From the UHGV virus genome UHGV-0131811: a stretch of 64,000 bases of DNA. The stretch is one strand, 5' to 3'. A program made the position numbers and the translations under genes. Each line of letters starts with the position of its first letter. The stretch's first letter is position 1. Under the pieces are notes generated by a model. The model was not told where the DNA came from, did no database searches, and was given only the letters and a program-made list of their open reading frames with translations. The DNA is from a virus. Below are positions 43,092 to 46,848 of this stretch, in pieces.

Positions 43092-45626
43092 TTAAGCAGT
43101 TCTTACCCAAGCCATTAACTTATAGAACTGGTTAGTAACACTGAATGCTGAACCAGAACCAGTACCACCAGTGTTACCACTAACTGTGTGGCTGTGAGCA
43201 CCAATACCAACAGTGTGGCTGTGGTTACCTGTTGTATTCGTTACACCAGACCAGTTTCTTGATGCGTTGAAGTTGACAGGGATACCATTAGTAAAGTGAT
43301 TACCAGTATACCCTTTAGAACCTGCCTGACTACCGAGGTGGAATGCACCACTTGCTGTGTAGAAGCTGCTAGTGTCACTCCTGAAGTAACCAAATGAACC
43401 AGTAATCTCCATAGTACCTCTGTTGTGGTTATGGTTACCAGTTGTGCTAGAAGTCTTAGTACCATAATCAAATGATGAAGTGGTAGCAGAGAAACTGTGT
43501 GTATGTGAAGGTAAGTTACCAACAGATAACGTTACAGAGTCTGAACCACCAGTTGTAGCAACATCTGAACCGTTTGCTGCTGCAATTCTAATAGTTCTAC
43601 CAACACCATTATTCAGGTACGTCCAAGTTAACCCAGGAAGTGCTGTATTAGGGTTAACATTACTGTTAAACCACGTTACAATACCTACTGGATAGATTTT
43701 ATTCAGGTCTGTAGAGTCACTAATTGCTTCTGCAATCTTCTGGTCAGTTTCTGCTTTAGTGTATGCACCAATATCTGAAGGGGTTGGTTTTTGCAAACTT
43801 GTGTAGTATTTTGCAATTGTACCCTTCACAATACCTTGTGGAGCATCATCAAATGTCTGTGGGACTTCAAACAACTGTACACTTGCATTACTAGAAGATT
43901 GAACCCTAGATACCGTAGAATTTTGGTAGCCTCCAACCTTACAGTAAATATCATAAGTGTCACCAGAAGTGTTAACGTAACCAATATCCGTGATGAGGGC
44001 ATTATCTGCTGTTCTCCAAGCTACAGCATTTAAATCCTTTGGATTATTATTTGATGTTCGTAAAACAATTTCACACTTGCCTGATTGGTATGGGTTATTC
44101 GCATTAAAACCAGCACCTCCAAAAACCTCAATAACTGCTGTAGATGTTGATTGTGGCATTACAACAGTAGCGATTTTAGCCCACTTTTCACCGTTTCCTA
44201 AATTAAAACTGGTGCTTCTGATTCTCAGGTATCTGCTATCACTAGCACTTTGAGTAAAATATCTAGCATCTAAGTTAGAGAAATCTGAAGGTTGAACTTG
44301 ACCAGTGATTGCTAAAGTTGCATTCATTTCAAATACTGAACCAATGTTAAGCCCTTTACCTGTCTTGTAGTTATACAGGTTTAAGATATCACTGGCATCA
44401 CCATTACCGATATACCACTTGCTGGTTCCATCAACAGCCTTCCCTCTAATAAATAATGACGATGCAGTTTTTGCTTTTAACGCAAGAGCTTCACCATCAG
44501 AGTTGATAACCTGTTGTGCAGAGAATGTGTTAGCAGCATTGGTTCTTGCAATTGTACTTAATGTGGCTGCCGGAATATATCTAGAATCAATATTAGTCCA
44601 ATCCGAAGGTTGAACTTGACCAGTGATTCTGAAGTTCTGGTTGACTGAGATATAGCCATTATCAAGTCTGATATTTGAACCGTGTACATAGTTGTGTAGC
44701 AGCACAGAGGCTGTGTTATCCCCGTTCCCTACATACCACCTGTTAGTGTTCTGAGAGTCAACACCCTGAATGAATAGTGAGCTAGCTGTTGCATTTTTCA
44801 ACCTTAAAGCAGCACTGTCACTAATGATAGTTAGATTTCTACTAAACGTGTTAGTGCCCGTGAAATTATTATTAGCAGCTAACTGTGCAAATCTCTGATT
44901 AGCAACTGTCTGAGTGAAATATCTAGCATCTAAGTTAGAGAAATCTGAAGGTTGAACTTGACCAGTGATTGCTAAAGTTGCATTCATTTCAAATACTGAA
45001 CCAATGTTAAGCCCTTTACCTGTCTTGTAGTTATACAGGTTTAAGATATCACTGGCATCACCATTACCGATATACCACTTGCTGGTTCCATCAACAGCCT
45101 TCCCTCTAATAAATAATGACGATGCAGTTTTTGCTTTTAACGCAAGAGCTTCACCATCAGAGTTGATAACCTGTTGTGCAGAGAATGTGTTTGTGATAGC
45201 AAGTCTTGCGTATCTTGCATCATTCTCTTCATTAGTCCTCATACCAAGCTCATTAGGACTTGGCTTATTCAGAGTATGATAAACAGTTGCTGACCTTGAA
45301 GCATCTGCAATAGTTAGTTTAAGACCATTTGCGTTAATTTTAAAAGTCTTTAAAATATCCCCAATAGTAATCTCAGAAGAGCCTGTAGGGTCAAATACAG
45401 ACTTTCCACCGTAAAGTAACTTGACAATACCTAAATCCCCAGTCATAGTGCTTCCAGCAATCTGAACAAACCTTTCTAGTTTGAAGGAAGCTAAGAAGTC
45501 TTGATAGGTCATTCTACGGTCTTCATCACCCAACATTTCAGGTCTTTTCTTAACTCTGATGTGCAATAGGTCTTCTGAACGAATTGTGTCGATTGAGTTT
45601 AATTGACTCAATTTGTAATCTGCCAT
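43092..45626 (-). CDS. tail fibre protein with internal repeats and His-rich C-terminal tip
   Basis: 844 aa; three about 110-aa repeats; C-terminal HxH motifs (SHTHSF, GNHNHN, GNHSHTVGIGAHSHTV); last late gene after baseplate genes. Confidence 0.7.
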   Translation of the reverse strand: MADYKLSQLNSIDTIRSEDLLHIRVKKRPEMLGDEDRRMTYQDFLASFKLERFVQIAGSTMTGDLGIVKLLYGGKSVFDPTGSSEITIGDILKTFKINANGLKLTIADASRSATVYHTLNKPSPNELGMRTNEENDARYARLAITNTFSAQQVINSDGEALALKAKTASSLFIRGKAVDGTSKWYIGNGDASDILNLYNYKTGKGLNIGSVFEMNATLAITGQVQPSDFSNLDARYFTQTVANQRFAQLAANNNFTGTNTFSRNLTIISDSAALRLKNATASSLFIQGVDSQNTNRWYVGNGDNTASVLLHNYVHGSNIRLDNGYISVNQNFRITGQVQPSDWTNIDSRYIPAATLSTIARTNAANTFSAQQVINSDGEALALKAKTASSLFIRGKAVDGTSKWYIGNGDASDILNLYNYKTGKGLNIGSVFEMNATLAITGQVQPSDFSNLDARYFTQSASDSRYLRIRSTSFNLGNGEKWAKIATVVMPQSTSTAVIEVFGGAGFNANNPYQSGKCEIVLRTSNNNPKDLNAVAWRTADNALITDIGYVNTSGDTYDIYCKVGGYQNSTVSRVQSSSNASVQLFEVPQTFDDAPQGIVKGTIAKYYTSLQKPTPSDIGAYTKAETDQKIAEAISDSTDLNKIYPVGIVTWFNSNVNPNTALPGLTWTYLNNGVGRTIRIAAANGSDVATTGGSDSVTLSVGNLPSHTHSFSATTSSFDYGTKTSSTTGNHNHNRGTMEITGSFGYFRSDTSSFYTASGAFHLGSQAGSKGYTGNHFTNGIPVNFNASRNWSGVTNTTGNHSHTVGIGAHSHTVSGNTGGTGSGSAFSVTNQFYKLMAWVRTA
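44251..44531. repeat. near-identical direct repeat, copy 1, inside tail fibre gene
   Basis: About 281 bp repeated 660 bp away with a single mismatch seen. Confidence 0.85.
44911..45191. repeat. near-identical direct repeat, copy 2, inside tail fibre gene
   Basis: Same as copy 1; in-frame offset of 220 codons. Confidence 0.85.
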
Positions 45627-45672: not shown

Positions 45673-46848
45673 TTAAGCTGTTCTCTGCCACACATACACT
45701 ACAAAAGATGGCTGCTCAACACTGAATGCTTGACCACCACCAACAGAACCAGTTGTCCCTGAGTGTGTATGCTCAGAGCTAGAAACAGTAACAGTGCCTG
45801 TATGACTGTGCGAACCAATATTAACAGTGTGGCTGTGAGCACCAATTGCGACAGTATGACTATGAGCACCAGATGATGCAGTTGTACCTGAGAAGCTATG
45901 GGTGTGAGCACCAGCTAAATCAGTATACATAGCATTACCAACACCAGCATCAGCAGATGCAGTAATAGCATTTGTGCCACCCCTATCATTACCCCTCATA
46001 GGAACTCTATGGTTGTGGTTACCAGCATTACTTGTTGTGCCACTAAACGTGTGAGTGTGAGCACCAGCACTATTAGTCGTTTTTGTACCGTAATCAAAAG
46101 TTGATGTGCTTTTTGAACCATAATCAAAACTAGAGATAGATACACTTGCAGAGTGTGTATGACCACCACCTGTTAGGTAGATAGAGTGAGTATGTGCTGG
46201 TAAATTATTATTTGTTAATGCTACAGTCTGAGAACCAAACATTGAACCAACAGGTCTAGAATCTGTATCATAACCAACTAGTGCCCTACCTTTAGAAACT
46301 AACTCCCAAGTGCCACCACAAAGCAAGTAAGTGGATGGGTTAGCAGAGTTAACAGACAGATGAATAGTCCCCACTGGATATGATGCTTGGATAGCTTTGT
46401 ATAAGTTATTCACTGCTCTCGCTGTAGCATACTTATCAGCATCTTCATTGTACAGATTAGATGTTGTCCAGTTCTGAACATTACTTAAACCAACCTGTGC
46501 TTTCGTTGTATTGTGTGGGTTACTTTTGTCGTCAATATGTTGCTGAATTAAGTTATTCACTTCCTCTGACGACATAATTTGTAGATTTGCTCTTGCCTCA
46601 GCAACATTCACAATGTCTGACAAGTTATTAGCTGCAACTAATTGAAGAGAGTTAATAACATTATCAAGACCCACTTGTGATTTAGTTACACCATGAGGAT
46701 TATTCCTCAGAGATGCGTGAGGTGCTAACAACTGCTCAAGCGTACATCTTTTATCCTCAACACCTTGCTTAAGGTGGAAGATATCACTCAAATCAATTGG
46801 TAAGGCCGCTTGTGGCAAGGCACTAATTTGAATTTCACCTACTGCCAT
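45673..46848 (-). CDS. tail fibre / receptor-binding protein with His-rich tip
   Basis: 391 aa; multiple HxH motifs (AHTHSI, GHTHSA, AHTHTF, GNHNHR, AHSHTVAIGAHSHTVNIGSHSHT); C-terminus similar to the 844-aa fibre. Confidence 0.65.
   Translation of the reverse strand: MAVGEIQISALPQAALPIDLSDIFHLKQGVEDKRCTLEQLLAPHASLRNNPHGVTKSQVGLDNVINSLQLVAANNLSDIVNVAEARANLQIMSSEEVNNLIQQHIDDKSNPHNTTKAQVGLSNVQNWTTSNLYNEDADKYATARAVNNLYKAIQASYPVGTIHLSVNSANPSTYLLCGGTWELVSKGRALVGYDTDSRPVGSMFGSQTVALTNNNLPAHTHSIYLTGGGHTHSASVSISSFDYGSKSTSTFDYGTKTTNSAGAHTHTFSGTTSNAGNHNHRVPMRGNDRGGTNAITASADAGVGNAMYTDLAGAHTHSFSGTTASSGAHSHTVAIGAHSHTVNIGSHSHTGTVTVSSSEHTHSGTTGSVGGGQAFSVEQPSFVVYVWQRTA

Follow-up and report, generated by a model that had tools for sequence, protein, structure and literature searches.

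We analysed a 64,000-nt stretch of the viral genome UHGV-0131811 (the window), which carries a long tail fibre (LTF) gene on its minus strand and, inside this gene, two nearly identical 281-nt segments in direct orientation. The repeat is very probably the footprint of a very recent non-reciprocal recombination event (gene conversion) inside the LTF gene of a Felixounavirus, by which the core of one shaft module was overwritten with that of another. The gene, the two repeat copies and the three modules, which were delimited with a module hidden Markov model (HMM), lie as follows.

43092–45626, minus strand: LTF gene, encoding a protein of 844 amino acids (aa), P0001; assigned from the open reading frame (ORF), Pfam, DNA matches and synteny.
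44251–44531, minus strand: repeat copy in module 3, assigned as the donor copy by repeat search, base comparison and four-way alignment.
44911–45191, minus strand: repeat copy in module 1, assigned as the converted copy on the same three grounds.
44895–45227, minus strand: module 1 (aa 134–244), the recipient, whose core now has module-3 sequence; limits from the HMM domain envelope.
44553–44906, minus strand: module 2 (aa 241–358), the diverged middle module, unchanged.
44235–44567, minus strand: module 3 (aa 354–464), the donor.

The sequence-only reading had taken the gene for a tail fibre gene, and domain content, DNA matches and gene order all confirmed this. The Pfam family gp37_trimer (PF20744) occurs three times in the protein (E value 3e-57; 191 bits vs a cut-off of 21.7), in addition to a weak match to Gp10_C. 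The DNA is 83–93% identical to the annotated tail fibre genes of the Felixounavirus phages D4, I14.1, wV8 and Mushroom and of O157 typing phages, and 228 phage records match the ORF, nearly all of them from Felixounavirus. The gene lies downstream of those for the shorter fibre and the baseplate, in the context of a Felix O1-like genome. Its neighbours encode a 391-aa Gp10_C protein, a Baseplate_J protein, thymidylate synthase and dihydrofolate reductase (DHFR), an order shared with phage D4, and the region is also syntenic with locus L029. Judged by these matches, the ORF encodes the LTF of a Felixounavirus.

A repeat search of the window returned the two direct copies, both inside the minus-strand ORF, with an offset of 660 nt. 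In a base-by-base comparison they were identical at 280 of the 281 positions, the sole mismatch being A at 44256 vs G at 44916, with a longest exact run of 275 nt and a sharp drop of identity outside the limits given above. This bears out the segments, the offset and the single mismatch that the sequence-only reading had reported. The offset equals 220 codons and is in frame, and the mismatch is synonymous, so that residues 146–239 and 366–459 of the protein are identical over 94 aa. As that reading had also stated, the in-frame copies flank a diverged third module: module 2 is only 45–46% identical to modules 1 and 3. In 27 related fibre genes, exact direct repeats within the gene reach a maximum of 0–58 nt, so that chance cannot account for the 275-nt run. 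The spurious mirror-image ORFs expected on the plus strand were found at 44419–44613 and 45079–45279, with the first 37 aa identical; they are trivial by-products of the repeat, which has no regulated function of its own.

Using the module HMM, we compared the shaft among 120 homologous proteins. Three modules were present in 119 of them, which indicates that the three-module layout is ancestral. Within one protein, the median identities were 41% between modules 1 and 2, 47% between modules 1 and 3, and 41% between modules 2 and 3; only in the window protein did modules 1 and 3 reach 97%. For 351 of the 359 modules the nearest neighbour was at the same position in another protein, so the modules behave as positional orthologues and do not evolve in concert. 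The nearest neighbours of module 1 of the window protein, however, were all module 3 of other phages (97%), with an identity of at best 60% to any other module 1. Its module 2 is 100% identical to module 2 of the closest relative, P0002, and its module 3 is 100% identical at the protein level to module 3 of P0002–P0005 and P0007. Clustering at 80% identity gave 50 module types in 70 combinations. Four types occurred at more than one position, and the window protein was the only one with the same type twice.

A comparison with the fibre genes of relatives, which the sequence-only reading had proposed, revealed the replacement of a patch of module 1 by module 3. Loci L029 and L030, identical assemblies from two other metagenomes, represent the closest relative gene, P0002. 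The window gene has 2535 nt and P0002 has 2541 nt, a net difference of −6 nt that keeps the frame. The two genes differ by 12 scattered single-nucleotide polymorphisms (SNPs) and by one block of 114 differences, and the contigs are 99.7% identical over the 3.4 kb upstream of this patch. The outgroup phage D4 has the L029 version of the patch (27–29 of 30 nt per 30-nt interval), and therefore the state in the window is derived. The patch and its junctions are placed as follows.

44978–45178, minus strand: replaced patch, 114 differences in about 201 nt (gene nt 449–649), encoding aa 150–216; from the alignment with L029, L030 and D4.
45179–45191, minus strand: 5' junction, a microhomology of 13 nt common to modules 1 and 3, AACACATTCTCTG, with its counterpart at 44519–44531; from the four-way module alignment.
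44920–44977, minus strand: 3' junction block of 58 nt, encoding the conserved linker LAITGQVQPSDFSNLDARY, with its counterpart at 44260–44317; from the four-way alignment.
Example of an L029-type module 1 core: GGAACTCAAAATATTCAAGGTGATGCTAAC

The four-way alignment consisted of modules 1 and 3 from the window phage and from L029. Module 1 of the window is module-1-like up to AACACATTCTCTG and module-3-like from there on, and it returns to the module 1 sequence between 44919 and 44916: marker 44919 (T) is module-3-like and marker 44916, 3 nt off, is module-1-like. This combination was found in none of the 29 other loci (L029, L030, D4 and 26 more). In the ancestor-like L029, modules 1 and 3 already share the 58-nt block without a single difference. 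The conversion tract is thus delimited to 260–275 nt, with the linkers kept and the whole core of module 1 replaced; in detail, aa 150–216 correspond to the whole beta-domain core, whose strands were predicted at residues 152–214 by AlphaFold2 (AF2). The recipient differs from its orthologues and equals an unchanged paralogous donor, copy number and frame are kept, and the tract ends in shared sequence, all of which are marks of gene conversion. The alignments identify module 3 (44251–44531) as the donor and the core of module 1 (44911–45191) as the recipient. Module 3 of the window is 1 nt from that of L029: at SNP 44421, modules 1 and 3 of the window have C and L029 module 3 has T. Since D4 also has C, this base is ancestral, and the site therefore excludes only the L029 allele as donor. 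Dating the event by this SNP failed for the same reason.

Similar transfers were found in other members of the family. P0011 has its own module 1 copied into the C-terminal half of its module 3 over 173 nt (L032, 1050–1222 and 1716–1888), with 92% nucleotide identity and 2 aa differences; 11 of the 13 nucleotide differences cause no amino-acid change. P0106 likewise has its own module 2 copied into the C-terminal half of its module 3 (L033, 1385–1558 and 1709–1882; also L034), with 141 nt exact, and this allele was assembled in two different samples. The crossovers in both proteins are at a conserved mid-module motif, RW[WY]xGxG. P0041 (740 aa), compared with aa 330–440 of the window protein, shows an exact deletion of a single module with its junction in the conserved linker motif ITGQVQPSD. 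As this protein comes from a metagenome contig (ENA, 23,301 bp), its two-module state may be natural or the product of a collapsed assembly. A change of module number is rare in the family (1 of 120). Sharing across positions was also seen among isolate phages: in DaR-2019a, position 2 is taken by a module of the module-1 type and position 3 by one of the module-2 type, in DaR-2019b and DR094 a module of the module-1 type is at position 3, and module 3 of SPJ41 is 92% identical to module 1 of another phage. By these comparisons, intragenic transfer of modules recurs in the fibre family.

The module order of P0064, the protein of Salmonella phage DaR-2019a, looks shifted by one. Position 2 is occupied by a module about 90% identical to the common module-1 type and position 3 by one that is 90–96% identical to the common module-2 type, which suggests an unequal exchange that added a front module and lost the last one.

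The comparisons establish the polarity between donor and recipient, the limits of the tract, the unchanged number of modules and the recurrence of similar transfers; the course of the event itself can be outlined conditionally. As a rule, the fibre shaft consists of three tandem beta modules of about 110 aa, only about 40–47% identical and joined by short conserved linkers. Module 1 would have paired with module 3, either of its own DNA molecule or of a sibling genome within the pool of replicating genomes, and strand invasion or template switching may have started from the 58-nt linker block. About 200 nt would then have been copied before a return at the 13-nt microhomology, through template switching or synthesis-dependent strand annealing, with the template module 3 left intact. 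The hybrid fibre presumably works, given that a near-complete genome was assembled; in that case, each of the positions 1 and 3 tolerates the core of the other.

Several points weigh against gene conversion. The allele is a singleton, as P0001 comes from one scaffold of an ENA short-read metagenome (ERZ28650236 scaffold_10, 89,177 bp; sample SAMN06051249). The recombinant junction 31-mer was absent from IMG/VR, the JGI metagenomes and the GTDB genomes, and no INPHARED phage spanned the junction in a search with the 131-nt junction region. As a synonymous site with polymorphism across the family, 44919 is a weak marker. The 13-nt microhomology is short for classical homologous recombination, and the viability of the hybrid fibre is assumed.

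The main rival reading is an assembly artefact: an ordinary L029-like gene, present perhaps together with a second strain or a variant with a deletion, would have been mis-threaded via the 58-nt block so that the core of module 3 was written twice. The window is a metagenome scaffold, its allele is seen nowhere else, and the 58-nt exact repeat between modules 1 and 3 of L029-type genes can tangle an assembly graph at k = 55; it can also be reasoned that mis-threading of a mixture of the wild type with a 660-bp deletion variant, its junction at the 13-nt microhomology, could yield exactly such a structure. However, the 5' junction shares only 13 nt, which is below any usual k, and therefore reads that join a module 1 flank to a module 3 core must exist. 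The mixture of wild type and deletion variant would not create the 44919/44916 combination, absent from the other loci, although this argument carries the weakness of marker 44919 noted above. There is no N in the window, both junctions need k-mers absent from the closest relative, and the contig is listed under 2 samples. In addition, P0011, whose transfer at 92% nucleotide identity cannot be an artefact of the assembly graph, and P0106, with its two samples, demonstrate that transfers of this kind do occur in the family. We therefore regard an artefact as unlikely, but the caveat on this point in the sequence-only reading was a fair one, the window being a metagenome scaffold.

The core of module 1 could also have been imported from another co-infecting Felixounavirus, either from its module 3 or from a module 1 of the same type. 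Module types reassort freely between phages, and the module 3 type of the window is present in at least 16 proteins. Among the 120 proteins, however, none but the window protein has this type at position 1, and the tract is identical to the resident module 3 over 275 of 275 nt, whereas module 3 of the closest relative differs by 1 nt. A donor phage with an identical module 3 and a sibling genome cannot be told apart. Nothing in the comparisons speaks specifically for import from another phage, which is considered very unlikely.

A recent tandem duplication, in which a two-module fibre gained a third copy, would place near-identical copies on both sides of a diverged one, but it has almost no probability left: three modules are ancestral (119 of 120), the gene is 6 nt shorter than that of the closest relative, not longer, and the flanks of the module 1 core are still orthologous to module 1 of the relatives. 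It was rejected because the copy number is not above that of close relatives, judged by the 120 homologues and the closest relative. Of the two origins that the sequence-only reading had offered, recent duplication or ongoing conversion, conversion stands, through the patch replacement beside an unchanged module 3, and duplication falls. A diversity-generating retroelement (DGR) with a template and variable repeat pair was likewise rejected as next to impossible: near-identical repeats of about 100–300 nt in a tail fibre gene are a DGR signature, but no adenine-specific changes were found (0 of 88 coding-strand adenines of the tract), the sole mismatch (T/C on the coding strand) is the ancestral base of the module 1 flank, both copies are coding and lie in the shaft rather than at the C-terminus, and the annotation of the 8.5 kb around the D4 orthologue lists no reverse transcriptase, although not all ORFs of the window were scanned.

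With gene conversion as the preferred reading, the event can be compared with known systems. The cryo-electron microscopy structure of the Felixounavirus phage Bas63 describes an LTF with a conserved N-terminus, tandem beta repeat domains, short helical linkers and an HxH tip like that of T4 gp37, and reports unexpected sequence variability in repeats 2–5 at a constant repeat number (PMC12609058). The window fibre resembles the LTF of the Bas63 gp27 / Sf14 gp53 type in genus-level genome context, N-terminus, repeats with helical linkers and HxH tip, and the constant repeat number of Bas63 matches the 119 of 120 three-module proteins found here. By this analogy, modules 1–3 of the window would correspond to the Bas63 'beta helix repeats 2–4' and be among the variable repeats 2–5. 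The window fibre differs from that of Bas63 in that two of its repeat domains are identical, one copied over the other.

Gene conversion between tandem repeats (concerted evolution) is similar in its non-reciprocal transfer, intact donor, tract ends in shared homology and constant copy number. The fibre family of the window differs in that conversion is occasional and not pervasive, as seen from the 351 of 359 same-position neighbours. Tetart et al. reportedly described in 1998 that the distal tail fibre genes of T-even phages recombine at conserved motifs called 'His boxes', and Haggard-Ljungquist in 1992 and Sandmeier in 1994 are said to have treated tail fibre mosaicism in general. Recombination of T-even fibres is comparable because short conserved blocks flank variable cassettes and act as crossover points, giving mosaic genes. 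The T-even cases swap receptor-binding segments between phages, whereas the swap in the window was between two shaft positions of one gene and left donor and recipient equal. Searching the literature for gene conversion among tail fibre repeats gave no specific hit. The event adds an unusually fresh case to the mosaicism already known from tail fibres, within a protein family that is itself known, and is a clean natural example without a new principle.

Tail fibres set the host range of phages, and Felix O1-like phages are used in the typing and biocontrol of Salmonella and E. coli. The Bas63 study left open why the shaft repeat domains of the LTF are so variable (PMC12609058). A tentative and rather doubtful answer is that the shaft modules form a combinatorial cassette system, in which blocks encoding the linkers serve as recombination joints and the cores are exchanged between phages and between positions. 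The cores would then be functional rather than inert spacers, for example in secondary glycan contacts or as targets of host defence, and the event in the window would be the freshest exchange, its 275-bp repeat making the fibre length unstable. This idea is consistent with the 50 module types in 70 combinations, with the sharing across positions, with pN/pS (the ratio of non-synonymous to synonymous polymorphism) and with codon identity in the linkers. Within types, pN/pS was about 0.15–0.18, and therefore the module cores are constrained and not drifting. At sites with identical amino acids, codon identity between paralogous modules was 0.64–0.68 in the linker vs 0.44–0.48 in the core. The excess in the linkers is suggestive of occasional homogenisation at the joints, but it is modest, the loci are not independent, and it is no proof of selected joints.

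If the cassette idea were true, it would address the question raised by Bas63. Three results bear on that question: the variation falls into discrete module types on which purifying selection acts, recombination at conserved linkers reshuffles these types, and a module core is able to sit at another position, which suggests that the positions are largely interchangeable. These results offer a design rule for fibre engineering, namely to exchange cores at the linker joints. Instability of fibre length is also predicted for the window phage, whose 275-bp repeat could, as the sequence-only reading had reasonably proposed, support a further 660-bp in-frame deletion, leaving a 624-aa fibre, or an expansion.

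The remaining parts of the fibre gene are as follows.

45228–45626, minus strand: conserved N-terminal region (aa 1–133), nearly invariant across 60 homologues.
43809–44225, minus strand: fourth beta-rich domain (aa 468–606), between the modules and the tip; all-beta in the AF2 model, with a predicted local distance difference test score (pLDDT) of 70–88.
43095–43709, minus strand: C-terminal region like the collar and needle of T4 gp37, with HxH motifs; from the match to PDB 2xgf and the weak Gp10_C match.

Following the description of the Bas63 LTF (PMC12609058), the N-terminal region would be the part that binds the baseplate, and the fibre as a whole would be a homotrimer attached there. 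Residues 702–823 match PDB 2xgf, the T4 gp37 needle (E value 1.6e-6), and HTH, HNH and HSH motifs are present in the translation; the C-terminal region is probably the receptor-binding tip. The AF2 model of the full-length monomer had a mean pLDDT of 54 and a predicted TM-score (pTM) of 0.28, with low confidence in the C-terminal part, and is confident only for the module cores and aa 468–606. Its confident all-beta domains lie at about aa 150–225, 285–330, 370–435 and 468–606, with short helical linkers between them.

Module 2 matches residues 48–117 of T7 gp17 in PDB 4a0t (E value 1.2e-6), and aa 166–342 match 7boz (E value 8e-6). Foldseek against the PDB returned 4a0t (E value 5.6e-5), the N-terminus of WceF and the N-terminal domains of tailspikes, at low TM-scores that make this weak support. 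The pyramid domain of T7 gp17 (4A0T, 7BOZ) thus appears to be a structural relative of the Pfam gp37_trimer module, a fold match that is indicative only, given the low TM-scores and the monomer model. A single such domain stands directly before the tip in T7 gp17, whereas the shaft of the window fibre has three of them in a row, and another domain and a needle like that of T4 come after them.

The HxH region of the LTF gene (43137–43234) is also related to 45718–46077, with segments of 36–60 nt that are 60–78% identical (repeat families D2, D4, D5 and D10). The latter interval is the C-terminal region of the upstream gene of the 391-aa Gp10_C protein (45673–46848), probably a short tail fibre. 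The related needle-coding sequences of the two fibre genes could also recombine.

Felix O1-like genomes carry a tRNA cluster. ARAGORN found no tRNA gene in the 64-kb window, and the cluster is presumably in the remaining 25 kb of the contig, outside the window.

The annotated tail fibre coding sequence of D4 (L001, 3001–5607) begins about 23 codons further upstream, giving 868 aa with the start MCGREQ.... In wV8 (locus L007), the longest ORF, of 871 aa, begins at this upstream start as well. The start overlaps the preceding gene. In the window and in most relatives the protein starts with MADYKLS, and the longer starts of D4 and wV8 are probably over-extended annotations.

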